A DNA stretch of 50,855 nt from Nitrososphaerota archaeon (GTDB taxonomy: Archaea; Thermoproteota; Nitrososphaeria; Nitrososphaerales; UBA57). The translations under genes were made by a program, and so were the position numbers. Under the pieces are notes generated by a model. That model did not search any database. It was not told the origin of the DNA and saw only the letters and a list, made by a program, of their open reading frames with translations. The stretch is from assembly GCA_027295865.1 (NCBI GenBank), contig JAPUKB010000081.1, forward strand, positions 1 to 50,855, read 5' to 3'. Every line of letters begins with the position of its first letter. The stretch's first letter is position 1. This document shows, piece by piece, positions 9,032-36,557 of this stretch.

Positions 9032-9367
9032 ATGCTTAGAGAGATCACCAAAGAATCTCCAATCATAGACCAATTCATTCATTCTATCGGCCTAATCAGC
9101 AAGGGAAGAACGAACAACGCGCGCGCGCGCTCACCACCAACTAATAGTAGAGCCATATCCGGATCTCTCTTAGATGATCTCATGCTAACTTTGCGAGAAT
9201 GTTCTGGTTGTGGGGCCCCATTCACCCCTAAAGAAAGTGAGACTATCGATCTAGTGGGATTACGCTCTAATCTCAAGTGTCGTTCTTGCGGAATCTCCAG
9301 GAAGTATCGGCATCTCTCCGAACATAATAAAAGTCTCCTATCCAGGGGATTAATTAGGTTCGGCTAG
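9032..9367 (+). CDS. Hypothetical zinc-ribbon protein
   Basis: The 111-aa product has CSGCG...(32 aa)...CRSCG. It lies inside the islet and I recognise no family. Confidence 0.35.
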   Translation: MLREITKESPIIDQFIHSIGLISKGRTNNARARSPPTNSRAISGSLLDDLMLTLRECSGCGAPFTPKESETIDLVGLRSNLKCRSCGISRKYRHLSEHNKSLLSRGLIRFG

Positions 9368-12710: not shown

Positions 12711-13874
12711 CTAGACGCCCCAACTCTTCGGAGTCATCGGCTCCTTCTTGCGGAAGCTGCCGTTAGATTTCTTGGCCCTAAGTTTTTCTACCATTTTTGC
12801 CTTTTCCGTGAGCCTATTGATCACTTCTATCTCGTGCAACCCGGAGAACATGACTACACTTGACAGTGATTTTGACATTGGCATCGGGTAGTCACCACCT
12901 CGGACCTCGGCTCCGGCTGTGACTTGTTCCAACCAAACACGGGCCTTGTCAATCCCCTGTCGGGAGATCTCTGATGGGGTCCCTGATACTATGAACATTG
13001 CTTTAGTGGCTGATGCGTAATTACACTCAGATGAAAGCATACCATTGGCCGCGTCTTGAATCAGAGAGAAACAGCGCGTGGTAGGATCAAGATCTTGAAC
13101 TGAGTGCCTCTTGAGGAATGGGAGGATCTTCTTTCCGACGTCCTTCACGACGGCGACACTTGACTTCTGCCAACCGCTATATCCCATAGTGACATAACCA
13201 GTTGTGGAATAGATAATATCAGATGCGTCAACGACTTTTACTCCGACTCTCGATGAAGAAGTCACCTCTCCCGCGCCTAGGAGAGTTAGGAATGGATCCA
13301 CGATCCTGTTATTCATTTCAATATACGTGTCCTTCATTGATAGGCCAGATGACTGCCAGATCTGGTTGTCCCAGAGGAAAATGGCATCGGCCTCTTCACT
13401 CATATTATGAAGACTCTTCGCGGCATTAAACGCCATAAGCTGGCCTTCGTCTTCTGATGGTAGGAGAGCGAGGGCGTACACTGGCTCACTATAGCTTTCT
13501 TTCAGAGCTCTTGCAATAATCGAAGAACCGCCGGAACCAGTACCTCCACCCATACCGGCAATTACAAGGAAAGCATCTATGTTATGCGTTCCATGCCGAC
13601 TAATCGCTCTCTTGATAAAATGAATGTCTTCTTCTGCCACTCGAGCTCCAAGGTCTGGGTTTCCGCCGGCTCCATGACCCTTAACTCGTGTTTGTCCGAT
13701 TAGGACTCTGCTGTCCATGGGAACATTCTTCAATCCCATTAGATCAGACTTTGCGGTATTGATGGCAATTGTGAATGGTAAAACACTCTTGTGCGAGGAC
13801 CATTCGTTCCTTGCCACAAATCTATCAACTACACTTCCTCCTCCCTGTCCGACTCCGATCAGCCCCAATCGCAA
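12711..13874 (-). CDS. cetZ: Tubulin/FtsZ-superfamily protein, CetZ type
   Basis: It contains LIGVGQGGGSVVDRF, AINTAKSDL, VKGHGAGGNPDLG and the T4 loop GMGGGTGSG. The start is TTG. Confidence 0.85.
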   Translation of the reverse strand: MRLGLIGVGQGGGSVVDRFVARNEWSSHKSVLPFTIAINTAKSDLMGLKNVPMDSRVLIGQTRVKGHGAGGNPDLGARVAEEDIHFIKRAISRHGTHNIDAFLVIAGMGGGTGSGGSSIIARALKESYSEPVYALALLPSEDEGQLMAFNAAKSLHNMSEEADAIFLWDNQIWQSSGLSMKDTYIEMNNRIVDPFLTLLGAGEVTSSSRVGVKVVDASDIIYSTTGYVTMGYSGWQKSSVAVVKDVGKKILPFLKRHSVQDLDPTTRCFSLIQDAANGMLSSECNYASATKAMFIVSGTPSEISRQGIDKARVWLEQVTAGAEVRGGDYPMPMSKSLSSVVMFSGLHEIEVINRLTEKAKMVEKLRAKKSNGSFRKKEPMTPKSWGV

Positions 13875-15203: not shown

Positions 15204-15256
15204 GTGTCAGAGGGATCTAAGGCGGGTGGAATTAATCCTTTCGTTCCGTCTCAAGG

Positions 15257-15341
15257 CGCCGGGAGTGGGATTCGAACCCACGATTCCTTTCGGAGACAGG
15301 GTTAGCAACCCTGCGCCCTAACCAGGCTAGGCGACCCCGGC
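15257..15341 (-). tRNA. tRNA-Ser (anticodon GCU), class II with a long variable arm
   Basis: The reverse complement reads GCCGGGG TC GCCT AGCCTGGTTA GGGC G CAGGG TTGCTAA CCCTG TCTCCGAAAGGAATC GTGGG TTCGAAT CCCAC TCCCGGC G. Confidence 0.9.
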
Positions 15342-21877: not shown

Positions 21878-22354
21878 GTGTGCAAACAAGAAATGGATCA
21901 GAAATATCCAGAACCGACTGTAGGGGCCCTAATTGTCAACAAACATGGAAAGATTTTGCTCGTGCGGTCTCACAAGTGGGTCAATGGCAGACTTACTGTT
22001 CCAGGAGGCCACATAGAGCTTGGGGAGTCCGCGGCTGACGCAATAATCAGGGAAGTGAAAGAGGAGACAGGGCTAGAAATTCTTCCTTCTAAGCTCCTTA
22101 TGGTTCAAGAAGCGATCTATTCCGATGACTTCTTCAAGAAAAAGCACTTCATCTTCTTTGACTTTGTATGCCAAGCTCTTTCCGAGGAGGTGAAACTCGA
22201 TCAAGACGAGTTGCAGGAGTACGACTGGTACGATGTAGATGAGGTCGAGGAATCAGTTCTTGAGCCATATACCAGGAACCTTATTGCGACCTACCGGAGG
22301 AATTCTACGTCAGGTCCCGACTCGATTTATCCGTCCTTTGATAACAACCGTTAA
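21878..22354 (+). CDS. Nudix hydrolase
   Basis: It has the Nudix box GGHIELGESAADAIIREVKEETGL. Confidence 0.85.
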   Translation: MCKQEMDQKYPEPTVGALIVNKHGKILLVRSHKWVNGRLTVPGGHIELGESAADAIIREVKEETGLEILPSKLLMVQEAIYSDDFFKKKHFIFFDFVCQALSEEVKLDQDELQEYDWYDVDEVEESVLEPYTRNLIATYRRNSTSGPDSIYPSFDNNR

Positions 22355-22388
22355 ACGTCGCAGCAATAGGTCAGACCCGCAACCTTTC

Positions 22389-23324
22389 TTGAGAATTATC
22401 AGCACTATTGATTTGCAACTAAAGAGGTTCAAAGAAGAGAAGTATATTCTTGTTCCTATTTTGGCCCCGATACTCGTGATCGCCATAACTGACTTCAGAT
22501 CGCTTTTTGCGATATGGAATCAGGGCCGCGGGGGATTCCTCATCGCCCTTTCCTTCCTAGCACTTGAGTTTTTTGACTCGAAAATCCGAATGAAACGCAC
22601 CTTCAGGAGGAACCTGGTTATCGTTCTGATAACTTTAGTGACCTCGGTCTACTTTGGGTCCACCTTATTGTTTGGGGTACATGATTGGCTATCGAGAGTA
22701 GGAGAGGGTTTTGGAGTAACGCTGCTCCCTAGTTGGGTAATCATGTGGGACTATGTCGTCTTCTCAGCTTTCCTTATGATAATCCTTGCCGTTAGGTACG
22801 GAGTTCGAGAACTACGCTCATTATTCTCGGCAAACGTCTATCTAACTGGGATGGCGGTGATCTTATCTTTGGATGCCCTTTTTCCTTTTGACACACTAGG
22901 ACCCCTACAAGCAATAGTACCACTTCTTCTGGGAGGTGTCAGGGAACTAGTCACCCTGTTCCAATTAGGCCAAATAGGTCTTACTGAGAATATATTGACT
23001 CTTTATGGGTCCGAGGGGACATTCTCATTTGCTGTTTTCTGGCCCTCGGCTGGAGTTCATAGCATGATCATCTATTCTCTCATCATGCTCATCTTTCTAG
23101 TCAAACTTGATATTTCGGCATTCAAGAAAATCATCTTCCTCTCGGCGGGGATTATTGGGACCTTCGCTGTAAATGTTTTCAGAATTTTCCTCCTTGCCGC
23201 GTACGTATTGACGGTCTCAACAAACCCCGCAAGGTTCGAAGAGTTCCATAATGTAGCTGGCGAAATAGTTTTTCTACCATGGATAATGGGGTATATCTTC
23301 TTTATCTACAGGCTGGCAAGATGA
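22389..23324 (+). CDS. Exosortase/archaeosortase-family integral membrane protein, with Ser at the expected catalytic Cys position
   Basis: The frame is open from 22239, but that stretch overlaps the Nudix gene; plausible TTG starts are at 22389 and 22413. The product is polytopic. Its C-terminal core FAVFWPSAGVHSMIIYS ... AVNVFRIFLLAAY ... FHNVAGEIVF matches the family pattern C-x-G / N-x-x-R / H-x-x-x-G, except that the first position is Ser (TCG at 23046-23048). Confidence 0.65.
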   Translation: MRIISTIDLQLKRFKEEKYILVPILAPILVIAITDFRSLFAIWNQGRGGFLIALSFLALEFFDSKIRMKRTFRRNLVIVLITLVTSVYFGSTLLFGVHDWLSRVGEGFGVTLLPSWVIMWDYVVFSAFLMIILAVRYGVRELRSLFSANVYLTGMAVILSLDALFPFDTLGPLQAIVPLLLGGVRELVTLFQLGQIGLTENILTLYGSEGTFSFAVFWPSAGVHSMIIYSLIMLIFLVKLDISAFKKIIFLSAGIIGTFAVNVFRIFLLAAYVLTVSTNPARFEEFHNVAGEIVFLPWIMGYIFFIYRLAR

Positions 23325-23361: not shown

Positions 23362-24807
23362 ATGACGCCGAAGGATCTTCTATTTGTAGTGTATTTGGTT
23401 ATCTCATGGATCCTTGTGCTTTATGGGACAAATCTCTACTATCTATTATTCAAATCTATTAGAAATCACAACCTCCCGTTGCGAAAGGCGTTGAATCCCG
23501 CACCCACCGTAACAATCCAACTGCCGGTATACAACGAGATGTACGTGGTTAGAAGACTTGTAACGTCAATTTGCAAGATCGACTATCCGAAATCAAATAT
23601 GGAGATTCAAGTCCTTGACGACTCTAACGACGATACCGTGACTATATGCAATGATGTTGTCGAAGAATTCAGGAAGCAGGGGTACGATATTGAACATATC
23701 CGACGGGGGACCAGGAGTGGCTTCAAAGCTGGCGCTCTTCAGTACGGACTTTCGCGCGCAAAGGGGGAGTTCGTTGCGATTTTCGATGCGGATTTCGTAC
23801 CGAACCCTGATTTTCTAACCCAGACACTTCCGTACTTCGCTTCAAGGGAAATTGGTTTGGTGCAAGCAAAATGGGGTCATCTCAATGAACAATACTCTTC
23901 TCTTACAAAGGCACAGGCACTCAGCTTGGACGCCCACTTTCTTATCGAGCAGAGAGCCAGGAGCTACTCTGCTCTATTCATGAACTTCAACGGAACTGCG
24001 GGAATCTGGAGGAAAGAGTGTTTAGAAGAGGTGGGGGGATGGAAAGCCTCTTTGGCTGAAGATCTTGACATTAGCCTTAGAGCACAATTGCAGGGCTGGA
24101 AACTAGTGTTCCTACCTGAATTGATCTGCCCCGCTGAACTTCCGGTCCAGATGAACGCTTCAAAGAGACAGCAGTTTAGATGGGCGAAGGGTTCGATTGA
24201 ATGCGCAATGAGACATACTAGGACTATACTTTTTTCTAAATTCCCTTTAGAGACCAAATTCCAAGCTTTCATGCAGCTTACGAGACATGTGATTCATCCC
24301 CTTATCATCGCCCAGTTCATCATACTCCCGATTCTGATGTTGGCAAAATTCGACCTTGCACCAGTAACAGCAATTCTGACGCAAATACTCCTAGGTCCAC
24401 CAATTTACGGCTACGCCTTAACTAGGCTTTATGGTAACCAATGGCTCAAGAAAGTTCCGGCCTACTTCTATCTTCTCCTCTTCGGAGCTGGCATCTCTGT
24501 CAATAACTCTGGGGCGCTAGCCCAGGCTTTGCTGAGGAAGAAAAGCGATTTTCTGCGTACCCCGAAGTTCGCGGTAAGAGGTCGGAAAGACGAGTGGAAG
24601 GGAAAACAATACGCCCTTCCCTTTACAGCGACCGCACTCGGTGAATCATTAATGGTAGGGTGGGGAGTTATCACTATCCTTGTAGCATTGCTTACAGGAA
24701 ACTTCTTCTTGCTCCCTCATATCGTGATCCTGACGCTAGGTTTCGCTTACGTTGCCTCTCTAACCGTGCTCCACTCAGTCGGAACAAGGACGACAGGGGC
24801 GGGCTGA
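23362..24807 (+). CDS. Processive family-2 glycosyltransferase (cellulose-synthase-like / CslA-like beta-glycan synthase)
   Basis: It has an N-terminal TM segment, the motifs VLDDSNDDT, FDADFVP, AEDLDIS and QQFRWAKG (D,D,D,QxxRW), and C-terminal TM helices. Confidence 0.85.
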   Translation: MTPKDLLFVVYLVISWILVLYGTNLYYLLFKSIRNHNLPLRKALNPAPTVTIQLPVYNEMYVVRRLVTSICKIDYPKSNMEIQVLDDSNDDTVTICNDVVEEFRKQGYDIEHIRRGTRSGFKAGALQYGLSRAKGEFVAIFDADFVPNPDFLTQTLPYFASREIGLVQAKWGHLNEQYSSLTKAQALSLDAHFLIEQRARSYSALFMNFNGTAGIWRKECLEEVGGWKASLAEDLDISLRAQLQGWKLVFLPELICPAELPVQMNASKRQQFRWAKGSIECAMRHTRTILFSKFPLETKFQAFMQLTRHVIHPLIIAQFIILPILMLAKFDLAPVTAILTQILLGPPIYGYALTRLYGNQWLKKVPAYFYLLLFGAGISVNNSGALAQALLRKKSDFLRTPKFAVRGRKDEWKGKQYALPFTATALGESLMVGWGVITILVALLTGNFFLLPHIVILTLGFAYVASLTVLHSVGTRTTGAG

Positions 24808-24811
24808 AAGA

Positions 24812-25315
24812 ATGAACCCAAGGACTGCTGCCCTGATGCTGATTGCGCTGATTGCGCTGGGAGGAATTCTCACATATGCCCATTACTTCAATACTTGGTA
24901 CGCAGTAGACAGAGGACGCGCACACCTTAGTAGAGCTGAAACATCGGCCTTTGCTGATGGAATGGCAGCCTCAATAAGTGAGGCAATTGAGCTTATTCCG
25001 CCAACCGGAAACCCGGTATGGTGGTTTCCCACCGCAAGAACGGACTTTGAACTGATCCAACATGATCTTAACGGATTCATTGAGAGGACTACGATACTCG
25101 AGGCGATGCCGAAGGAACGTGATGCGTATCAGCAAGGGATGGACGACCTTCGTGGGAAACTGAAGACCGTCCAAGAACAGCTTGGAGAAGCTTCAGCCTT
25201 CTTCTTCGTTGACCCTTTCAGTCTCCTCATCTCACTCTTCTGGATCATAGCAGTCTCGATAGTTCTTGCCTTAAGGTCTAGGGGGTTTGGGAAGGAAAAG
25301 ACGGCAGAACCCTGA
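24812..25315 (+). CDS. Two-TM protein (N- and C-terminal anchors) of unknown function, co-transcribed with the GT2 gene
   Basis: It lies 4 nt after the GT2 stop. The TM segments are AALMLIALIALGGIL and LLISLFWIIAVSIVLAL, with a helical extracytoplasmic middle. Confidence 0.5.
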   Translation: MNPRTAALMLIALIALGGILTYAHYFNTWYAVDRGRAHLSRAETSAFADGMAASISEAIELIPPTGNPVWWFPTARTDFELIQHDLNGFIERTTILEAMPKERDAYQQGMDDLRGKLKTVQEQLGEASAFFFVDPFSLLISLFWIIAVSIVLALRSRGFGKEKTAEP

Positions 25316-25356: not shown

Positions 25357-27072
25357 TTATTGTTTGGCAAGGGCCTTCCGCCAGACGAGGATTGCCACCA
25401 CGGCCTCCAGAATCAGGACTGACCCGGACACAGCGATAATAATGCTGGTATTCTGATCGAAGAGACTCTCCAAACTCAACTGTACGGAGGTAGTTTCCGA
25501 ATCAATTGCGAATTGCGTCTGGCTACTGATTCCGTTGACGGATGCTTCGACCTGGTATCTTCCTCCCGGGAGTCGAACGGATACAGTAGCTTCTCTCCAA
25601 TCTAGGCGGATAGGGTCGCTAGACAATGGATCAACACCTCTGATGATTATCTCTCCAGGTGGAGCTGGAAGTCCGAATGTATCCACTACATCGATCAAGA
25701 CTGTCCCCTCAGTTGCAAATATAGTAGTACTCGAGAGGCTTCTTAAACTCAGGGTAGTCGGTCTGGCTGATTTAACTATGATTGAGTCAATCGCAAGATC
25801 GAACTCGGTAATAATCTCTGCCTGAGGAAGAAGGACGAAGGTTGTATCACCCACCTTGGCTGTCTGGAGGTTGGTCGAGGTGAGATTTATGTCATAATTA
25901 AGTATCGATCGCCCTGTAAATTCGTTCTCAACATTGATTGTTGCTAAGAGAGGGGTCACTCGTGTTCGCCATAGGGATTCAAGCCCATCGACCTTTGCGG
26001 CCAAGATTATCTGGTAGCTTTTTGGACTCTCAAGAGGCTGATCAAAGGAATACCTCAAGGGGAAATCGAAGGACGAAAGGCGTACACGGGAGTCGGGATT
26101 AATAATGATCTCATTTGGAAATATCACAACAGGAATCCTTGCGACGTGGATGATCCCCTCAAATTCCAAGAAGACTGAAAGAAGGCTTCTCCCGTACTTC
26201 GGCGGGATTAGCCACGGCTTGTTTAGTTGTCCAATTGTAGGAATATCGATCGCGAGAACTTGACTAGGTTCTTCAGATACTGTTGCCGAGACCCTCGGGG
26301 TATCGGCAATCCCTTCATCTATGAATGTTAAGAAGAGGGATTCTCCAGTCCGCTTGGAGAGAGCAATCTCTGAGGACATTTCAGCCCACACATTCAGCGG
26401 TCCTAGAGCTTCGCCCTCATACTCAATGCCCAAATCCAGTCCAGCGGTCAGAGTTGGGGCGTGCAATGAGACCCAAATACGTCGCAGACCGTTCTCAACT
26501 TCAATTGATTCTAATCTAATGTTTATCGGGTTACCTTCAATTATCACGTTCGAGAAGATATCGACAGGGTCATCTTGCATCTGGCTGGTCAAGATAACCT
26601 CGACGGAGGTTGGAATTCCGTCCAGGTCTAGTGATACTGTCCCATCGATCAGTAAGGACCGTTCAGAAAGTGATAACCGCTCCTGATGAGAGATCGGTTC
26701 GATGAATTGCTCCCCTAGCTCAAGAAAAACGGAAAATGACCCAGCTCTCCCCTCGAAAGATAGAGTGTAAATTCCAAGCGGATCTTCATCTGAGAACGTA
26801 TGGACGCGGAATGGGTTTGTACCGATGGGTAATCGCACAATATCTGAATCATCCGGGCCAAGCAAACTTACAAATGCAGGAAATTGGGGAAATACCCATA
26901 GTGACTCTCCACGTACGAAAACAGGTATTCCGACATCAGAATCGAATAGATTCTCTGGAGAATAACCAATTCGCGCGCTGAGGTCCATTTCGACAATCTG
27001 AGCGCTCCCAGAGGGTACCAAGGGGATAAGAAGTGAAAGAAGTGTCGCTAGAAGGAAGATTCTATTTCTCAT
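25357..27072 (-). CDS. Large secreted, beta-rich protein with a signal peptide and a C-terminal TM anchor plus basic tail; function unknown
   Basis: The N-terminus is MRNRIFLLATLLSLLIPLVPSGSAQ and the C-terminus is IIIAVSGSVLILEAVVAILVWRKALAKQ. This is the last gene of the MoxR operon (ATGA overlap at 27069-27072). Confidence 0.6.
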   Translation of the reverse strand: MRNRIFLLATLLSLLIPLVPSGSAQIVEMDLSARIGYSPENLFDSDVGIPVFVRGESLWVFPQFPAFVSLLGPDDSDIVRLPIGTNPFRVHTFSDEDPLGIYTLSFEGRAGSFSVFLELGEQFIEPISHQERLSLSERSLLIDGTVSLDLDGIPTSVEVILTSQMQDDPVDIFSNVIIEGNPINIRLESIEVENGLRRIWVSLHAPTLTAGLDLGIEYEGEALGPLNVWAEMSSEIALSKRTGESLFLTFIDEGIADTPRVSATVSEEPSQVLAIDIPTIGQLNKPWLIPPKYGRSLLSVFLEFEGIIHVARIPVVIFPNEIIINPDSRVRLSSFDFPLRYSFDQPLESPKSYQIILAAKVDGLESLWRTRVTPLLATINVENEFTGRSILNYDINLTSTNLQTAKVGDTTFVLLPQAEIITEFDLAIDSIIVKSARPTTLSLRSLSSTTIFATEGTVLIDVVDTFGLPAPPGEIIIRGVDPLSSDPIRLDWREATVSVRLPGGRYQVEASVNGISSQTQFAIDSETTSVQLSLESLFDQNTSIIIAVSGSVLILEAVVAILVWRKALAKQ

Positions 27073-28082
27073 CTTTTCTTGCTTTCCCCAAAGAGTCTTG
27101 TTCTCATACTATCTCCGAGACCTATTAAAATAATAAGGGCCATCATGCCGATCAGACCCGACGTTAAGGCCAACTCGGCAGACCCGGTTAACAGTGAAAT
27201 TCCTACAATAAGGCCGATGTCAAGTGCCACTGCGAGGAGAATGGAAAAACCGATTGACGTGAGATTAGAAAAGCGCAATCTTGATGACCTTCTTACGCTT
27301 TGCTCAAGTGAGACGTCGTCCTCTGAATGTCTCCTGAACAGGCGATAGTAGATGAAGAGAGCAGCAGAAAGCGCAAATATTGTTCCCGTGTAAATCCTAC
27401 TTGCCCCCAACTGAAGTGATTGAGTCAAGGCCACCTCTGAGGGCGGGACCGGGATAGTTGTTTCAAGAATGTTCGCGATTACAAATTGAACAATAAAAAG
27501 GGTTTGAAGCAATACTCGTGTCCCTGCCTCTTCCAACACTCTCCCTGTGGATACGATCCCGCTAGGCGAAATCACAGTCGATAGGACAAAAGCAACTAGT
27601 CCATAGATCACCATGGTCATCAATACTGCCCCGGCGGGTGTCCCCTTACCACGTATTATCGAAGACGCGTGGCTCACAATGGCAATAATTGGGATGACAA
27701 TAGCAAGACTTGCGATACCCGCGAGGTACAAATCTGCTGCAGCCCCGAAGTAAAGTGGCAGCCTGTTACCAACTGGTGAAACCAGGAGGCCTACCATCAG
27801 AAGTGAGGGTAGGACGACGGGGATTGTGAGTGTGGCTATTAGGAAGGAATCTTGGGCAGCCCCTGAACCTGCTCTGATCCTGTACACGTAAGCTCCCACT
27901 CCTGCTACCGCCATGAAAGCTGAGATAGAGTTGAGGTTAACCGCGATGATGGAGCGGAGGAGAAGGAATATCGCATTCTGGTATTGGCCAGTTATCAATA
28001 TGAACAGGTATGGGGAAGCCATCCCACCAAAAAGTAGAATTGTAAGAATGAATGATCGTGGAGGGGTATTCTGAATTACCAA
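27069..28082 (-). CDS. Polytopic membrane protein (about 9-10 TM), function unknown
   Basis: The 337-aa product is hydrophobic throughout. It sits between the DUF58 gene and the secreted-protein gene. Confidence 0.55.
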   Translation of the reverse strand: MVIQNTPPRSFILTILLFGGMASPYLFILITGQYQNAIFLLLRSIIAVNLNSISAFMAVAGVGAYVYRIRAGSGAAQDSFLIATLTIPVVLPSLLMVGLLVSPVGNRLPLYFGAAADLYLAGIASLAIVIPIIAIVSHASSIIRGKGTPAGAVLMTMVIYGLVAFVLSTVISPSGIVSTGRVLEEAGTRVLLQTLFIVQFVIANILETTIPVPPSEVALTQSLQLGASRIYTGTIFALSAALFIYYRLFRRHSEDDVSLEQSVRRSSRLRFSNLTSIGFSILLAVALDIGLIVGISLLTGSAELALTSGLIGMMALIILIGLGDSMRTRLFGESKKR

Positions 28083-28083
28083 A

Positions 28084-29382
28084 TCAAGTCTCCAAAACTA
28101 GACTCGAGCGCGAGAATGCGTCGAGAGCTTTGATAACTAGATTACTCTGGGTACAGATCTGAGCTGAGATCCCGCTGGAGGCGAGCTGACTTAGTACCTC
28201 TTCGAGATGGCTCAATTCCCGATTGCCGATTATCCCACTTGCCTGAGTAACTCTGACATCTTCACCACTGTACGAGATGAAGGATGTGGTATCAAGAATA
28301 AGGGCGTGCGGGAATTGGTATTTGATGATGGCTCTCCTCAGGATCATTGGATCAACGGTCCTGGGATATGGAGAGTCCAAAACTAGCAAAATGAGTGATT
28401 TAGGTTTAGAGGCCGTAATCGCCGTGTTCATCACTGAGTCCAAGTCGAGATTGGGATCGGGCAATAAATTGTATATTCTTGATGCTATGTGCAAAGGGCT
28501 GCCATCAGCTCGTTCCCCCCTTCCCGCACGAGAATAGACCACTTGAAATTCTCCTCCGGTCTTCACTGCAAGGTGGGCAAGCACAATGGCAAGTTCAGCG
28601 GCAGCATCGAGTTTCCGTTTTCCGATCTCTCCCTCCCCCGTTGTGTCTGTGTTTAAGACCACTAGGGTAACGTTCAACGACTGCTCGTACTCATGTTCTT
28701 TCGTCTTGGGTAATCGCATCGGGGATTTGGCCATCGCCTTCCAGGCAACCTGCCGATAGTCATCTCCTGGATAATATTCTCTGATACCGCTGAATTCTGA
28801 TCCATGAGAAGTACTCACGGTCGAGCGCTTCAGCGGTTTCATCCCTATGTGTACCCTACCCCGGAGTAACTCCTCCCCGACTCTCATACTGGGGTAAACC
28901 TGGATTTCCGAATGAGATTGAACGTTCCTACTTCTCTTAAACATCCCGAATCTGTCGGTTATTATCAGCTCAATCTCTCCGACCTTCCAGCTACCCATTT
29001 GCAATGCCTTTAGATTATGCTCGACGGTTGTAGTCTTTCCCTTGGGGAGAGACTCGATCCAAAAATCGTTAGGCGCGTGTATCTTGAACGCGTATGGAAT
29101 TTTTTCTATAGCTAGAATAGGGCCTAAACTTGATCCTGAGTTTGTAAATTCGACGGTTAGTGGAATATCATCTCCAACAAAGGCCGTGCGAGCTCCGCTC
29201 TTTACCTCAACTTTGACAAGGTGAAGTCTACGACTTGAGTTAATGTAGAGGATGGATTCTACTCCCAAGATGGAGAGGACGAAGAGCGCGACGGTGGAAA
29301 AAACTCCATCGAATGCGAGAGTCGATGCCGCGACTAGGCCCAGGGTGGAGCTGAGTATAGACACCCCTCTCCTTGTAAGCAA
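28084..29382 (-). CDS. DUF58-family protein (vWA-like), N-terminally membrane anchored
   Basis: Two N-terminal TM segments are followed by the DUF58 signature GSEFSGIREYYPGDDYRQVAWKAMAK. It lies immediately downstream of MoxR, as is usual for this family. Confidence 0.85.
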   Translation of the reverse strand: MLTRRGVSILSSTLGLVAASTLAFDGVFSTVALFVLSILGVESILYINSSRRLHLVKVEVKSGARTAFVGDDIPLTVEFTNSGSSLGPILAIEKIPYAFKIHAPNDFWIESLPKGKTTTVEHNLKALQMGSWKVGEIELIITDRFGMFKRSRNVQSHSEIQVYPSMRVGEELLRGRVHIGMKPLKRSTVSTSHGSEFSGIREYYPGDDYRQVAWKAMAKSPMRLPKTKEHEYEQSLNVTLVVLNTDTTGEGEIGKRKLDAAAELAIVLAHLAVKTGGEFQVVYSRAGRGERADGSPLHIASRIYNLLPDPNLDLDSVMNTAITASKPKSLILLVLDSPYPRTVDPMILRRAIIKYQFPHALILDTTSFISYSGEDVRVTQASGIIGNRELSHLEEVLSQLASSGISAQICTQSNLVIKALDAFSRSSLVLET

Positions 29383-29388
29383 ATGATA

Positions 29389-30363
29389 TCATCTTGGGGG
29401 CTCGGTTGCCGAGATAGCAGTCGTGATGACATTGTTGACAGCATCATAGTTGTAGGGTCTGAGAGATCTGGCACTTCTAAGGACGTATTCCGGACTCAGT
29501 AGGATCCTATGATTCAAAGCGTGAAAGGTGAGGCTTTTTACATCATCAGGGGTAACATAGCTTTTGCCATTTATTGCCGCAAGTGCTCTGCTTGCAGCGA
29601 GAAGGTGGACAGAAGCCCGCGGACTCCCTCCCAACAAGACCTTCTCCTCGTCTAGTCTTGTAGCGCCCACAAGGGAGACAACATAATCCATGACTTCGTG
29701 AGATATTGTGACACTTTCCCTGATTTGATTTCTGGCGCTTGTTACCTCTTTTCCTGAGACAACGGCTTGAACGGTGCTAAGGTCTGTTGCTGCCGTAGCT
29801 CTATTTACTATCTCAATTTCATCTGATTTCTCAGGGACTTCGACAATAAGTCTTAACATGAATCTGTCAAGCTGGGCTTCTGGTAACGGATAGGTTCCCT
29901 GCATCTCGACAGGATTCTGAGTCGCGATCACAATGAAGGGATCAGGAAGTAATCTGGTTACCCCTTCAACGGTCACTTGCTTTTCTTGCATTGCTTCTAG
30001 AAGAGCGGATTGGGTTTTGGGTATGGCCCTGTTTATCTCGTCCGCTAGTACGACATTACCAAAGATCGGCCCCTCTCGGAAAATGAATTGTTGATCTTTT
30101 GCATTGAAAATGAATGTGCCAGTTATATCCGCGGGCAACATGTCTGGCGTCAACTGAATCCTCTTGAAGTCGAGCCCCAACGCCTTCGCGAATGCTTTTG
30201 CTATCAGGGTTTTGGCTACCCCCGGGACGCCTTCTAATAGGACGTGACCATCTGCCAATAACCCCACGGAAAGTAATTTGATAGTCTCACTTTTTCCAAC
30301 AACAATTTTAGAGATCTCGTTCTCCAGCTTGAAGTAAAGATTCTTAGCTTCGATCTGAGTCAT
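29389..30363 (-). CDS. MoxR-family AAA+ ATPase
   Basis: It has Walker A LLEGVPGVAKT, Walker B VVLADEINRAIPKTQSALLEAMQE, ATQNP and the C-terminal lid GGSPRASVHL. Confidence 0.92.
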   Translation of the reverse strand: MTQIEAKNLYFKLENEISKIVVGKSETIKLLSVGLLADGHVLLEGVPGVAKTLIAKAFAKALGLDFKRIQLTPDMLPADITGTFIFNAKDQQFIFREGPIFGNVVLADEINRAIPKTQSALLEAMQEKQVTVEGVTRLLPDPFIVIATQNPVEMQGTYPLPEAQLDRFMLRLIVEVPEKSDEIEIVNRATAATDLSTVQAVVSGKEVTSARNQIRESVTISHEVMDYVVSLVGATRLDEEKVLLGGSPRASVHLLAASRALAAINGKSYVTPDDVKSLTFHALNHRILLSPEYVLRSARSLRPYNYDAVNNVITTAISATEPPR

Positions 30364-30728
30364 CTTCTTCTCGCCCCTCCAAGATTGAGACGTGAATACA
30401 GGCTACCTATTTCTTTGAATGTAGAGGCATTGCCTTTTCTCTTCAATGTAGATTCACTAATTGATATCAAATACTTCAACTCTTCCTTGGAACCGGAGTG
30501 AGGCATCTCTCCGCCCAAAGATCGCTTAGCCTGCTCCAGAACTACCCCTATTGCCGAAGAATAGTCCGGACTTGACTTATAGAGGCTCATAAGTGCCTTG
30601 GAGGTCGGACTAATTCCTACTTTTCCATCATCTTGTATCGGACGCTTCACTCGCCTGCCGTACAGACGTGCGTAGATGGCCGCTGAAAGTGCTACACCCA
30701 TCACGCCCAAAATCAGGTAATTAACCAA
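30360..30728 (-). CDS. Single-pass membrane protein, function unknown
   Basis: The 122-aa product has the N-terminal TM segment YLILGVMGVALSAAIYA. An ATGA overlap links it to the MoxR start. Confidence 0.45.
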   Translation of the reverse strand: MVNYLILGVMGVALSAAIYARLYGRRVKRPIQDDGKVGISPTSKALMSLYKSSPDYSSAIGVVLEQAKRSLGGEMPHSGSKEELKYLISISESTLKRKGNASTFKEIGSLYSRLNLGGARRR

Positions 30729-30741
30729 ACCTTTTACCCCA

Positions 30742-31272
30742 CTAAGACCTTTTCGCTCGACCTCTTATGACCAGATTCAGACGACTTATGTCGTTCACGA
30801 GTCCCGTAATGGACTCATAGCTGGACTCATTTCCCATATTTCCAAAACGTGCAGCCTCGTAATGCAGGTATGCCTTCGTAATTAGGGATGAGACATTGCG
30901 GAGCTCGGGTGAACTGTCTAAGACTTTCCTGACGAGTTCGAGTTCGGTCCAGTCCTTAGACCCTGTTTCGTTTATAGAAGGAATCAAATCTCGGAGAGAT
31001 TTGTAAATGAAACGAATTCCTTCCTCGAACTCACCTTTTGTTTTGAATCCCTCGAGCCGTTTATTCATCTCATCACTTCCGAATGGGACAAATCTCTCAG
31101 TCTGGTCCGATGTTAGTAAGGTCTGGGCTGATCTCTTACGCATAAAGGGATAAGCGAGTCCAACTACAGTGACAACAGCAATAGAGGCCATGGCTACAAA
31201 CATTCCCGTTAGCAAATTGGACGCAAGAATTCCTCCTAAGACCAAAGCGAGTGTGCCTTCCAACCTAAACAT
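30742..31272 (-). CDS. DUF4129-like membrane protein
   Basis: N-terminal TM segments are followed by WTELELVRKVLDSSPEL...AYLHYEAARFGN, which resembles the DUF4129 C-terminal signature (T..E ... Y..ARfG). Confidence 0.55.
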   Translation of the reverse strand: MFRLEGTLALVLGGILASNLLTGMFVAMASIAVVTVVGLAYPFMRKRSAQTLLTSDQTERFVPFGSDEMNKRLEGFKTKGEFEEGIRFIYKSLRDLIPSINETGSKDWTELELVRKVLDSSPELRNVSSLITKAYLHYEAARFGNMGNESSYESITGLVNDISRLNLVIRGRAKRS

Positions 31273-32041
31273 CCACTCGGATGCTGTATACTGCGGCTTC
31301 AGGAGGGTTCTCGGGATTAAAATTGGACACGATGAATGGTTCGACAGGCGTCAATTCAACTATTGAACTTCCTTCAAAATTAATGAAGCCAACTACATCG
31401 AGACTCGAGACCTTGCGCGTGCCACCCTCGGCGATATTTACTCGTAGCTCAACAACTCGCGGATCAGCCACAAGTGTTTCTCTCTCATAAATCATGGTGA
31501 CGGTTTCACCGGCGAGGACTACGCCATCCCCGCGAGTATCACGAAATTCCAGTCTATAAGAGGATAATGTCGTTTTAGAAAGAACCCATTCGATAGCATA
31601 GATCCTCACATCCGCGGGGATAATTACGGTCTCGTTGGCATCAATACCTTGGTAATCAACCCTAATCGTATAATTTCCTGGTGAAAGCCTGAAGAGAGCC
31701 CTTCCTCTGTCATCGGTCCTACCGGAAACAGAGAGGGTTCGCGTTTCTCCAGCCGGGATGTTGAAACTCTCCCAGAAGATCTCGACCAATTGAGAGCTAA
31801 GGGGCGTAAGAGACGGGGGCGAATCCTCTGTTAGCTGGACATCAATTTGGAGGGTGAGTAACCCTTGTCGCCCAAATGCTCCTCCTCCTAAGAAAGGGTT
31901 CTGTTGGTCTGGTCCTTGACCTCCCTCGGAGGGATTGATACCCAAACTCTGAACAACCTGAATGAGATAAAAGATCAATACCGAGGCAACTGCGAGTGCT
32001 AGGATCCCCCTCCCACCACTTCTGATGCTCCCTGGTCTCAA
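31265..32041 (-). CDS. N-terminally anchored extracytoplasmic beta-sandwich protein (CarboxypepD_reg-like segment)
   Basis: It has the TM segment ILALAVASVLIFYLI, a Gly/Gln-rich linker, and GRTDDRGRALFRLSPGNYTIRV. This is the first gene of the operon. Confidence 0.5.
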   Translation of the reverse strand: MRPGSIRSGGRGILALAVASVLIFYLIQVVQSLGINPSEGGQGPDQQNPFLGGGAFGRQGLLTLQIDVQLTEDSPPSLTPLSSQLVEIFWESFNIPAGETRTLSVSGRTDDRGRALFRLSPGNYTIRVDYQGIDANETVIIPADVRIYAIEWVLSKTTLSSYRLEFRDTRGDGVVLAGETVTMIYERETLVADPRVVELRVNIAEGGTRKVSSLDVVGFINFEGSSIVELTPVEPFIVSNFNPENPPEAAVYSIRVDV

Positions 32042-32084
32042 CTAGCACGAGCGAACCTCTGAGCCATTTAAACATGCCCAGAAG

Positions 32085-35573: not shown

Positions 35574-36557
35574 ATGCGACAAAGAGACCTCATTCTAGCG
35601 GATTATACCGCTACCGTGAAAGATACTGGAGATCTTGTGGAGACAACCGTCGAGGAGGAGGCGAAGAAGCTAGGGTCTCACGATCCGACGCGAAAATACG
35701 AAGCCCGACTGATAGCCGTCGGTGATGGATGGGTTCTCAAAGGAGTAGATGAAGCACTGGCCACAGCCAACGTAGGGGATAAACTCTCTATTGAAATCGA
35801 TCCCGAAAAAGGGTTTGGATTGAGAGATCCTTCAAAGGTTAGGATGATGCCCATCCGGAGATTTGGGGAAAAGGCTGACAAACTTGCTGCCGGGGACGAA
35901 GTCGAAGTGGACGGAAGGGTTGGCCAGATTAGGTTTGTGGGTTCAGGAAGGACCCAGGTGGACTTCAACCATAGGTACGCGGGAAAGGTGATTAGCTATG
36001 ATTTAACCGTAAGAAAGAAGCTTGAGAGTCAAGAAGATAAGATTAGGGCGATCGCAAGAAGGAGGCTTCCGATTGACGAAGACAAGATCGGGCTTCGGAT
36101 AGAAGACGGAACCGCAATACTTGAGTTCCCTGATGAGTTTTACCTAGTAGAAGGGTTGCAAATAATTAAGCAAGCTGTGGCCAATGACATTTTCAAATAC
36201 TTGGAGACGATTTCTAATGTTAATTTCATAGAAAGTTACTCCTCTCCCAAACCTAAAGAAAAGAAAGAGGATGTAGAGGCTAAGGTAGAGACCTCAGAGG
36301 ATGTAGAGGCTAAGGTAGAGACCTCAGAGGATGTAGAGGCTAAGGTAGAGACCTCAGAGGATGTAGAGGCTAAGGTAGAGACCTCAGAGGATGTAGAGGC
36401 TAAGGTAGAGAACACAGTTATCACAGAGAGTAATTCTCCGGGTCAATCAAGTCAACCCAAGGATGAAACAGATGACAGATCTACGGTACCAAGCGGGGGC
36501 GAAAAGGAAGGAGGGACACAAGGGACCCCCACGGCGGCAGACTCTGAGAAACTCTAA
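35574..36557 (+). CDS. Long-type FKBP peptidyl-prolyl isomerase with an acidic repeat-containing C-terminal extension
   Basis: It has the FKBP core (DYTATVKDTGDLVETT, VGDGWVLKGVDEALATANVGDK, VDFNHRYAGK) and then 5 copies of EDVEAKVETS. Confidence 0.8.
   Translation: MRQRDLILADYTATVKDTGDLVETTVEEEAKKLGSHDPTRKYEARLIAVGDGWVLKGVDEALATANVGDKLSIEIDPEKGFGLRDPSKVRMMPIRRFGEKADKLAAGDEVEVDGRVGQIRFVGSGRTQVDFNHRYAGKVISYDLTVRKKLESQEDKIRAIARRRLPIDEDKIGLRIEDGTAILEFPDEFYLVEGLQIIKQAVANDIFKYLETISNVNFIESYSSPKPKEKKEDVEAKVETSEDVEAKVETSEDVEAKVETSEDVEAKVETSEDVEAKVENTVITESNSPGQSSQPKDETDDRSTVPSGGEKEGGTQGTPTAADSEKL
36267..36416 (+). repeat. Perfect 30-bp tandem repeat, 4.8 copies (unit GAGGATGTAGAGGCTAAGGTAGAGACCTCA), in frame within the FKBP gene
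   Basis: The copies start at 36267, 36297, 36327, 36357 and 36387. They are identical through 36411. Confidence 0.97.

Follow-up and report, generated by a model that had tools for sequence, protein, structure and literature searches.

The window, i.e. the whole 50.8-kb stretch of DNA that was analysed, contains seven minus-strand open reading frames, g1 to g7, which span positions 32041–25357 and whose coordinates and junction lengths agree with those given in an earlier note made from the letters alone. The features of the locus, in the order of transcription, are:

32066..32072, minus strand: TTTAAAT, a TATA-box-like heptamer ~25–31 nt upstream of the g1 TTG start
31265..32041, minus strand: g1, 258 aa, predicted type II anchor and acidic (pI 4.6), β-rich extracellular domain
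30742..31272, minus strand: g2, 176 aa, divergent DUF4129 protein with a predicted N-terminal membrane anchor
30360..30728, minus strand: g3, 122 aa, pI 10.1, predicted N-terminal TM, basic cluster and helical cytoplasmic domain
29389..30363, minus strand: g4, 324 aa, MoxR-type AAA+ ATPase (AAA_3, AAA_5, AAA_lid_2), predicted to be soluble and cytoplasmic
28084..29382, minus strand: g5, 432 aa, DUF58 protein (PF01882)
27069..28082, minus strand: g6, 337 aa, orphan family with ~9–10 predicted TM segments
25357..27072, minus strand: g7, 571 aa, orphan family with a predicted Sec-type signal peptide, β ectodomain and C-terminal TM

The consecutive junctions from g1 to g7 measure -8, +13, -4 (ATGA), +6, +1 and -4 (ATGA) nt, and the seven genes form a tightly coupled unit that is conserved as such. 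Both g3 and g5 begin with TTG, and these starts are supported because the N-termini are conserved (MVNYL in g3; MLTxRG, with R5 invariant, in g5); the automatic gene caller chose later starts (g3 of 113 aa, g5 of 426 aa), with which two of the gaps would become ~24–40 nt. The heptamer TTTAAAT is a candidate for the operon promoter. A second TTTAWAW heptamer is absent from the minus strand between 32120 and 25357, so there is none inside the operon, and TATA-like motifs comparable to that of the window also precede g1 in related loci (L008, L007, L002, L004 and L009).

The Pfam search confidently assigned g4 to the MoxR group of AAA+ ATPases (AAA_3 6.7e-65, 217 bits, with additional matches to AAA_5 and AAA_lid_2), with GVPGVAKT as Walker A and VVLADEINR as Walker B and no predicted TM segment, and g5 to the DUF58 family (PF01882, 3.3e-9, 36.7 bits against a cutoff of 23.4), which bears out both assignments proposed in the earlier note. 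An N-terminal TM hairpin is predicted to anchor g5, with the body of the protein in the cytoplasm, and no relative of solved structure was found; in the alignment, the first strand of its vWA-like domain carries Asn at the MIDAS position that is occupied by Asp in generic DUF58 proteins, which speaks against direct metal handling by DUF58. The DUF4129-like nature ascribed to g2 could not be reproduced for the window protein itself, which yielded no DUF4129 match in the Pfam search at E<=1, but PF13559 (DUF4129) was matched by three of the six g2 orthologues (best 2.4e-9), and the hhalign comparison with bacterial DUF4129 proteins gave probabilities of 84–85% (E 6e-6 to 8e-6). At the level of sequence g2 is thus identified as a divergent DUF4129 protein. 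Its N-terminal hydrophobic stretch (aa 8–41) precedes a basic cluster and the DUF4129 domain, which is predicted to be cytoplasmic and has the invariant residues T109, E110, Y135, Y138, E139, R142 and F143. The slot just upstream of MoxR is occupied in every lineage by a 111–132-aa protein of the g3 layout. Among 46 families compared with g3 by hhalign, the C-terminal part (aa 297–420) of the DUF4350 family scored best (probability 55–56%, E 1e-4; runner-up 1.4%), a suggestive match, according to which g3 may correspond to the module of TM and tail in DUF4350 proteins.

None of the remaining genes, g1, g3, g6 and g7, matched a characterised family, in agreement with the earlier note, which had placed none of them in one and had named matches to well-characterised families of joint function as a ground for rejecting its finding; the topologies that it proposed agree with our predictions (one N-terminal TM in g1 and g3, ~9–10 TM in g6, signal peptide and C-terminal TM in g7). 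The basic N-terminus and single N-terminal TM of g1 precede an ectodomain with a CarboxypepD_reg-like "SPGNY" hairpin; the match to CarboxypepD_reg is below the cutoff (4.8e-4, 20.9 bits) and recurs in three of six orthologues, while a short collagen-adhesin motif was the sole match in the PDB search. A class III signal-like motif also present in g1 is not conserved. The g7 ectodomain (~520 aa, pI 4.4) is predicted to be all-β, and the C-terminal TM carries an invariant Glu (E556) followed by a short W-R/K-R/K-A-L tail. No Pfam, NCBIfam or PDB match was obtained for g7, and a word search returned three homologues. Its AF2 model is poor (pLDDT 34.5), with β-sandwiches only at residues 51–119 and 455–534, and Foldseek with this poor model gave only generic Ig/pilin/FN3 matches (TM <= 0.13). 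Searches of Pfam, NCBIfam, PADLOC and the PDB with g6 were equally negative, and its AF2 model is likewise poor (pLDDT 45); in a set of 1.84 billion proteins the g6 profile found no more than 14 cluster representatives at E<=1e-3. Highly conserved motifs of g6 are GSGAxQD, TLTxPVVLPSLLMVGLL and AADLYLxGIASL.

The order g1-g2-g3-MoxR-DUF58-g6-g7, with junctions of <=13 nt, is found in every complete related locus, and therefore the arrangement is not due to chance. Conservation beyond the MoxR-DUF58 pair, which the earlier note had named as a check, thus extends to the whole order, which at least five divergent lineages of Thaumarchaeota share (87, 58, 44, 31 and 26% identity in DUF58), with g1 orthologues in the same position in all of them and the cassette kept in several deep-branching Thaumarchaeota. 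The flanks vary by lineage and include PsmB/RtcA, adenylosuccinate synthase, GatDE, A-type ATPase genes, or PQQ dehydrogenase and citrate synthase. Next to the cassette in the window lie genes for a thaumarchaeosortase (TIGR04297, 4.3e-70), a PgaC/CelA-like GT2 and a 167-aa protein. No relatives of g1, g6 or g7 were found outside Thaumarchaeota, and by these searches the three are lineage-specific; in all, three or four of the cassette proteins are restricted to these lineages.

The cassette probably helps to mature or assemble proteins outside the cell. We tentatively favour, as a tenable though far from assured reading, that the one operon encodes a membrane-embedded MoxR chaperone machine for the ATP-driven maturation of extracytoplasmic clients. 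Judging from the predicted topologies, a soluble MoxR hexamer would work on the inner side of the membrane and there meet three anchored domains that face the cytoplasm, namely the g2 DUF4129 domain, the helical g3 tail and the vWA-like DUF58 body. The acidic β-rich ectodomains of g1 and g7 would lie outside the cell, and the polytopic g6 between both sides. ATP-driven remodelling inside might then be relayed through the membrane subunits, so that extracytoplasmic clients held by a g1/g7 scaffold would mature, be it by loading with a metal or cofactor or by assembly. Since neither g1 nor g7 has conserved Cys/His or an obvious catalytic set, a role as scaffold or as product is possible for both. 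The analogy is with the MxaR/MxaS-dependent Ca2+ loading of the periplasmic PQQ methanol dehydrogenase, MxaS being a DUF58-family protein. In that system MxaR (MoxR-class) and MxaS, together with MxaACKL, are needed for Ca2+ incorporation into PQQ-MDH (PMC12276312). The likely client in one marine lineage would be a membrane-anchored PQQ dehydrogenase (604 aa; signal peptide, β-propeller PF01011 at 2.1e-56, C-terminal TM) encoded 1 nt upstream of g1 (L096, L097, L099-L102), the only gene resembling a client that was seen in physical linkage with the cassette. Such tight linkage was seen only in this one closely related marine lineage, and no PQQ dehydrogenase is present in the window; many PQQ dehydrogenases with signal peptides or TM segments are encoded by non-ammonia-oxidising Thaumarchaeota (PMC7300363; PMC10640624).

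Could the cassette instead serve envelope assembly, the idea of the earlier note, by building or anchoring a glycosylated surface layer together with the thaumarchaeosortase, the processive GT2 and the 167-aa protein, with g7 as sortase substrate or surface subunit? The neighbouring genes invite this reading, as does the general sortase-signal layout of the g7 end (a conserved TM followed by a basic tail), and the 167-aa protein-GT2-sortase-NUDIX block adjoins g7 in two lineages despite a changed other flank. Yet the block is convergent with the cassette and hence not co-transcribed with it; it adjoins the cassette only in the window's clade, the sister clade and the next lineage and lies apart in three others (L004/L005, L009 and the marine loci), and the adjacency in the window's clade and sister clade is inherited synteny, because both flanks consist of syntenic housekeeping genes. 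The g7 C-terminus, moreover, matches no NCBIfam sorting-signal model, and its motif is kept in lineages without an adjacent sortase. The ~10-kb envelope block that the earlier note drew around both loci is thus weak, and we regard joint envelope assembly as unlikely. Somewhat more doubtful still is a self-contained surface structure, in which g7 with g1 would be an adhesin- or filament-like product, with MoxR/DUF58 driving it to fold or oligomerise, as in the analogous bifidobacterial PFNA cluster of an FN3 surface protein, MoxR, DUF58 and transglutaminase (PMC12067865). The acidic, β-rich ectodomains of g1 and g7 with their Ig/CarboxypepD_reg-like elements fit such a product, and so do the Big_3_5/CarboxypepD_reg repeats fused to DUF4129 in euryarchaeal counterparts. 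MoxR-assisted virion tail growth is a further analogue. Against it, neither repeats nor pilin-like features were found, the Foldseek matches of g7 are as low as stated above, the class III signal-like motif of g1 is not conserved, and the cassette sits among housekeeping genes without adhesin-like variability. Conservation of g7 between lineages is good, and many of its residues are invariant.

A Bat-like complex, which would keep the envelope intact during oxidative or other stress and have no client of its own, as in the MoxR-DUF58-BatA-E operons of Bacteroides, Leptospira and Rhizobium, has in its favour the common MoxR-DUF58 core of the MRP subfamily (PMC12067865) and partners that are all membrane proteins. 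Family searches, however, detected no homologues of the BatA/BatB vWA, BatC TPR or BatD/BatE proteins, and the accessory genes are of the DUF4129/DUF4350 type instead, which makes this reading improbable. We disfavour, as very improbable indeed, a MoxR-vWA system for conflict or defence. In its favour are weak matches to the Pfam bpMoxR family (7.9e-12) and of IetA to the P-loop region of the ATPase (2e-5); against it, AAA_3 outscores bpMoxR by 217 to 45 bits, no effector, β-propeller or other PADLOC component is present, and the context is one of housekeeping genes with vertical conservation of the cassette.

The maturation machine that we favour can be compared with several known systems. 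Like the MxaRSACKL system of methylotrophs, where an extracytoplasmic enzyme is the target of the MoxR-class ATPase MxaR and the adjacent vWA-class MxaS (PMC12276312), the marine thaumarchaeal cassette is associated with a PQQ dehydrogenase gene, which it directly follows. The accessory proteins differ, being of the DUF4129 type or orphans: family searches found neither relatives of MxaA, MxaC, MxaK and MxaL nor a separate MIDAS-bearing vWA protein in the window. With the Bat-type, mycobacterial MoxR1-DUF58-vWA and bifidobacterial PFNA loci the cassette shares a MoxR-DUF58 pair of the MRP subfamily and membrane or surface partners (PMC12067865), but it lacks the vWA/TPR Bat proteins, transglutaminase and kinase.

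Bacterial loci from Anaerolineales (L049), Verrucomicrobium (L053) and Obscuribacteraceae (L075) have the order polytopic-DUF4129-DUF4350-MoxR-DUF58, so that a TM-anchored DUF4129 protein, a g3-like TM with cytoplasmic tail, MoxR and a DUF58 protein with N-terminal TM hairpin follow one another as in the cassette, and a polytopic membrane protein of ~330–360 aa is included; these clusters are annotated, with no functional study found in the literature. Unlike them, the cassette has in g3 the TM-plus-tail module only, without the DUF4350 ectodomain, its polytopic protein, which has no detectable homology to theirs, comes after DUF58 rather than before DUF4129, and neither g1 nor g7 has a counterpart there. 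In Desulfurococcaceae (L033/L035/L058/L068/L081) the order is MoxR-DUF58-polytopic-...TM-DUF4129, and a ~335-aa protein with 8–9 TM overlaps the DUF58 stop codon, a position likened to that of g6 (g5/g6 junction +1), although the two show no profile similarity (hhalign probability 0.1%). A dedicated polytopic protein, part of the composition that the earlier note took to be undescribed, also recurs at ~330 aa in other MoxR-DUF58 loci, but g6 showed no detectable similarity to these proteins. Methanoperedens (L051) and Halostella (L080) encode, beside MoxR/DUF58, a protein with signal peptide, Ig/CarboxypepD_reg domain, TM and DUF4129; the euryarchaeal and crenarchaeal loci share with the cassette an architecture in which a TM links an extracellular domain of the Ig/CarboxypepD_reg type and DUF4129 on the cytoplasmic side, next to MoxR and DUF58. 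What is fused there is split in Thaumarchaeota into the ectodomain protein g1 and the TM-DUF4129 protein g2, and the similarity of g1 to those ectodomains is sub-threshold and at the domain level only. The composition that the earlier note held to be undescribed is accordingly new in its Thaumarchaeota-specific g1, g6 and g7 but not in its g2-g3-MoxR-DUF58 core, which is collinear with the widespread bacterial cluster. As far as the sequence comparisons go, the cassette is a Thaumarchaeota-specific elaboration of the already known DUF4129-(DUF4350)-MoxR-DUF58 module, itself functionally unsolved and widespread.

The seven minus-strand ORFs described in the earlier note are present in the window exactly as stated, running from position 32041 down to 25357 as a compact cassette (g1 to g7):

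31265-32041, minus strand: g1, 258 aa, membrane-anchored β-rich protein
30742-31272, minus strand: g2, 176 aa, DUF4129-like at the family level
30360-30728, minus strand: g3, 122 aa, single TM segment with a basic tail
29389-30363, minus strand: g4, 324 aa, MoxR ATPase
28084-29382, minus strand: g5, 432 aa, DUF58 protein
27069-28082, minus strand: g6, 337 aa, polytopic membrane protein
25357-27072, minus strand: g7, 571 aa, signal-peptide protein with a C-terminal TM segment

The coupling of the junctions also held (-8, +13, -4, +6, +1 and -4 nt, two of them ATGA overlaps). The TTG starts of g3 and g5 are backed by N-termini conserved among orthologues; the public gene call on the identical contig uses later starts, with which two of the gaps would widen to a few tens of nucleotides. 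The heptamer TTTAAAT, which resembles a TATA box, lies ~25–31 nt ahead of the g1 start and is the sole match to TTTAWAW on the minus strand over the whole g1-g7 unit; five other loci have a similar motif before g1. The stop codon of the upstream proteasome beta-subunit gene lies 43 nt from the g1 start, and the gene past the g7 stop is in convergent orientation. Taken together, the box, the upstream gap and the convergent 3' neighbor fit transcription of g1-g7 as a single unit. A scan for sigma-70 promoters and terminators, whose models are bacterial and not applicable to archaea, gave counts no higher than those in shuffled controls.

The product of g4 was confirmed as a MoxR ATPase by the AAA_3 (PF07726, 6.7e-65, 217 bits) and AAA_lid_2 (2e-15) domains, and its translation carries Walker A (GVPGVAKT) and Walker B (VVLADEINR) motifs. 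The DUF58 gene follows directly after a gap of 6 nt; a DUF58 gene immediately downstream of MoxR is the criterion for the MRP subfamily of Snider and Houry, as it is quoted in PMC12067865. The g5 product is likewise a genuine DUF58 member (PF01882, 36.7 bits versus the gathering cutoff of 23.4), with an N-terminal TM hairpin, a predicted cytoplasmic body and the motif GxEFxGxRxYxxGDDxRxIxWK, which is invariant or near-invariant in our DUF58 alignment (A1). In the window's clade the vWA-like first strand has Asn in place of Asp at the MIDAS position. A search of the PDB with the DUF58 profile returned nothing meaningful, and none of the seven proteins matched a VWA family in Pfam at E≤1, i.e. 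no separate vWA-domain (MIDAS) partner was detected among them.

The label "DUF4129-like" proposed for g2 proved valid at the family level, but not for the window sequence taken alone, which gives no match to DUF4129 (PF13559, cutoff 24.8 bits) even at E≤1. The family assignment follows from matches to DUF4129 in three of six positional orthologues (best 2.4e-9) and from the profile-profile comparison of the g2 family with bacterial DUF4129 proteins (84–85% probability). The g3 product, a TM segment followed by a basic helical tail, aligns with the TM-plus-cytoplasmic-tail region of DUF4350 proteins (hhalign: 55–56%, E 1e-4, with the second-best of 46 neighbor families at 1.4%). This region is the C-terminal part of these proteins not covered by Pfam, and the alignment is suggestive of a relationship between g3 and the TM-plus-tail module. 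The extracytoplasmic DUF4350 domain itself (PF14258) found no Pfam match in g1, g3 or g7, and g1 and g7 scored below 1% against the DUF4350 family in hhalign, which was also negative for g1 and g7 against the fused euryarchaeal proteins discussed below and against each other.

The remaining three proteins are orphans. The g1 protein is acidic, β-rich and type II-anchored, with a CarboxypepD_reg-like hairpin below the Pfam threshold; the PDB search with its profile found nothing meaningful. A type-IV-pilin-like class III signal (RG|ILAL) was considered for g1 and rejected, as it is absent from the orthologues. The g6 protein has ~9–10 TM segments and very strongly conserved motifs, with no family match in Pfam or NCBIfam and no solved relative in the PDB profile search; its AlphaFold2 model (13-sequence alignment, pLDDT 45) is too poor for use. 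The g7 protein comprises a signal peptide, an all-β ectodomain of ~520 aa, a C-terminal TM segment and a short basic tail, with no Pfam or NCBIfam family and no meaningful match in the PDB profile search. Its model (3 sequences, pLDDT 34.5) is equally unusable, and the generic Ig, pilin and FN3 matches found with it by Foldseek in the PDB (TM ≤ 0.13) were disregarded. No internal repeats were detected in g6 or g7. In all lineages the C-terminal TM segment of g7 (window 25357-25440, residues ~545–571) carries an invariant E556 and an invariant W564, the latter preceding R/K-R/K-A-L; an acidic residue buried in the membrane suggests an intramembrane partner (perhaps g6) or an unrecognized processing signal.

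Among the matches listed, searches based on DUF58, g6 and g7 retrieved related loci only from MAGs of Thaumarchaeota/Nitrososphaerota and from metagenomes, and the g6 profile identified 14 cluster representatives among 1.84 billion. The earlier note had made conservation of gene order beyond MoxR-DUF58 a test of its claim, and the full set of seven genes, in the same order and with junctions of ≤13 nt, was found in every sufficiently long locus, in at least five lineages. The flanks vary between lineages, hence the conserved unit is the seven genes.

Lineages carrying the cassette, with the numbered comparison loci and their identity to the window
Window clade: L001, L008, L088, L089; 87–99%
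Sister clade: L103, L104; DUF58 ~58%, g7 49%
Soil/freshwater clade: L002, L003, L007, L090-L095; 43–44%
Marine clade: L096-L102; g6 37–39%
Lineage of L004 and L005: DUF58 31%
UBA141: L009; DUF58 26%

The marine loci look like those of heterotrophic marine Thaumarchaeota, because of their PQQ dehydrogenase and their dark-ocean/TARA origin. UBA141-like genomes are relatives of the non-ammonia-oxidizing Gagatemarchaeaceae (PMC10640624). In the locus of Thaumarchaeota archaeon UBA141 the cassette lies between A-type ATP synthase genes (L009:3662-6845 and L009:14033-14647), with a catalytic A/B-type ATPase subunit (PF00006, 3e-73) on the upstream side and subunit E on the downstream side, each encoded on the strand opposite to the cassette, which looks as if inserted into, or beside, an ATPase cluster; the MoxR gene of this locus is partly masked by Ns (9046-9347).

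The observation made in the earlier note is confirmed, and its interpretation is partly supported. From the predicted topology and the established biology of MoxR/vWA pairs we infer that MoxR in the cytoplasm would act on DUF58, g2 and g3 through their cytoplasmic domains, which are tethered to the membrane, that the polytopic g6 and the TM segment of g7 with its buried Glu would couple the MoxR side to the extracellular ectodomains of g1 and g7, and that clients outside the cytoplasm may be held or shaped by these ectodomains as they mature or assemble.

The highest-ranked alternative is that the cassette has an envelope role linked to its neighbor, the sortase/GT2 block, which is convergent with g7:

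21878-22354, plus strand: NUDIX protein
22239-23324, plus strand: thaumarchaeosortase (TIGR04297, 4.3e-70, 236.6 bits, just below the cutoff of 250)
23362-24807, plus strand: PgaC/CelA-like GT2
24812-25315, plus strand: 167-aa protein with N- and C-terminal TM segments

The TIGR04297 match begins at sortase residue 74, hence translation of the sortase probably starts further downstream, and its overlap with NUDIX is an artifact of ORF calling. The four genes are kept as a unit in L002, L007, L008, L088, L091, L093, L095 and L103. The block adjoins the cassette in the window, sister and soil/freshwater (44% identity) clades; it does not do so in the marine clade, L004/L005 or L009. Synteny on either side of the cassette extends over many housekeeping genes in the window and sister clades, so that the adjacency seen in these two was inherited with the surrounding gene order. 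A link is hinted at only in the 44% clade, where the block stayed beside the cassette through the rearrangement of one flank. The "10-kb envelope block" proposed in the earlier note is possible but weakly supported: the two units are convergent and lie apart in three lineages. No sorting signal (PGF-CTERM, PEF-CTERM, PEP-CTERM etc.) was identified in g7 (0 NCBIfam families at E≤1), and its C-terminus with the WRKAL tail may be a new type of such signal. The next alternative is that g7 and g1 are themselves the assembled product. A Bat-like stress role ranks after it; a search for the Bat operon partners (BatA/BatB, BatC, BatD, BatE) gave no VWA, TPR or BatD match at E≤1.

A role in conflict or defense, as known for MoxR-vWA systems, is disfavored and was rejected: PADLOC gives only weak P-loop matches, for the ATPase, and no effector, β-propeller or other component, and the gene context is a housekeeping one. 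The other, housekeeping genes of the window (carbamoyl-phosphate synthase, KARI, FtsY, AlaRS, LeuRS, Na+/H+ exchanger) place the cassette in the core chromosome, not in a mobile island. The window also encodes a CetZ-type tubulin homolog (CetZ_C 2.5e-38; 12711-13874, minus strand), a tRNA-Ser(GCT) (15255-15341, minus strand) and a 327-aa ORF (35574-36557, plus strand), whose C-terminal part comprises ~5 tandem 10-residue acidic units (SEDVEAKVET) and a Ser/Thr/Pro/Gly-rich tail.

MxaR/MxaS is the best-characterized pair of the MoxR/DUF58 type, MxaS being, as we presume, a member of the DUF58 family. Together with MxaACKL, this pair is required for incorporation of Ca2+ into the periplasmic PQQ methanol dehydrogenase, and MxaS has been described as a vWA-domain protein (PMC12276312). 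The Mxa system was reconstituted in 2025 by co-expression with the dehydrogenase, with measurement of metal/PQQ loading. The marine lineage has an additional, eighth gene that ends 1 nt short of g1 on its upstream side (L096, L097, L100, L101 and L102, e.g. L097:4271-6085, plus strand; partial in L099), and its 604-aa product possesses a signal peptide, a PQQ-dependent dehydrogenase β-propeller (PF01011, 2.1e-56) and a C-terminal TM segment. Many PQQ dehydrogenases with signal peptides or TM segments, highly expressed, have been reported from non-ammonia-oxidizing Thaumarchaeota (PMC7300363, PMC10640624). Perhaps the cassette could be an archaeal counterpart of Mxa, which would drive, at the expense of ATP, the loading of a metal (Ca or lanthanide) and/or PQQ across the membrane into membrane-anchored quinoprotein dehydrogenases at the outer face, with DUF4129, the DUF4350-tail protein, DUF58 and g1/g6/g7 in place of MxaACKL? 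We regard this as unlikely. Generalization of the PQQ client is counted against by the tight linkage in one lineage only, by the lack of a PQQ dehydrogenase gene within the 50.8-kb window and by the absence of MxaA, MxaC, MxaK and MxaL family matches in Pfam or NCBIfam. A PQQ-like ORF is also found in L095, ~3.5 kb upstream on the opposite strand. If true, the Mxa reading would for the first time assign a function to the widespread DUF4129/DUF4350/MoxR/DUF58 module and explain the maturation of the numerous, highly expressed PQQ dehydrogenases of non-ammonia-oxidizing Thaumarchaeota. In any case, the candidate client hard-wired to the cassette in the marine lineage makes the client hypothesis directly testable.

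To our knowledge, few prokaryotic gene pairs that lack a mechanism are as widespread as the MoxR-DUF58 modules. The thaumarchaeal cassette is compact, conserved as a whole and every partner can be listed, and with g1, g6 and g7 it contributes three orphan membrane or surface families to what little is known of the cell surface of non-ammonia-oxidizing Thaumarchaeota. No homologs of these three were detectable among 78 non-thaumarchaeal MoxR-DUF58 loci, and no functional study of the DUF4129/DUF4350 form or of the thaumarchaeal cassette was found in the searched literature. Type IV pili of Thaumarchaeota have been associated with a MoxR/GvpN-vWA pair (PMC4858521); this pair was considered and set aside as a different system, with no type IV pilus genes in the window.

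The core of the cassette is familiar from elsewhere. Bacterial loci (L049, L053, L075) exhibit the order polytopic protein, DUF4129, DUF4350, MoxR, DUF58, in which DUF4350 holds the slot filled by g3 in the thaumarchaeal cassette. Methanoperedens and Halostella encode, beside MoxR/DUF58, proteins composed of a signal peptide, Big_3_5/CarboxypepD_reg, a TM segment and DUF4129, and by architectural analogy g1 and g2 look like a split form of this fused layout. In five Desulfurococcaceae MAGs (L033, L035, L058, L068, L081; e.g. L035:6119-17506) a conserved cluster comprises a radical-SAM protein (362 aa), a ~455-aa two-TM protein, MoxR, DUF58 (~485 aa), an overlapping ~335-aa protein with 8–9 TM segments and a ~610-aa protein ending in a TM segment and a weak DUF4129; L035 also encodes a 550-aa signal-peptide protein with a C-terminal TM segment. 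This layout parallels that of the thaumarchaeal cassette, although the accessory genes exhibit no detectable sequence homology. Homology of g6 to the polytopic proteins of Desulfurococcaceae or of the bacterial DUF4129/DUF4350 clusters was not supported (hhalign ≤0.2%), which leaves an architectural analogy only. The composition, which to the earlier note's knowledge was not a described system, is partly known as far as the core is concerned. Since that core is shared with bacterial and other archaeal loci, the cassette is a lineage-specific variant of a widespread uncharacterized module rather than a categorically new system.
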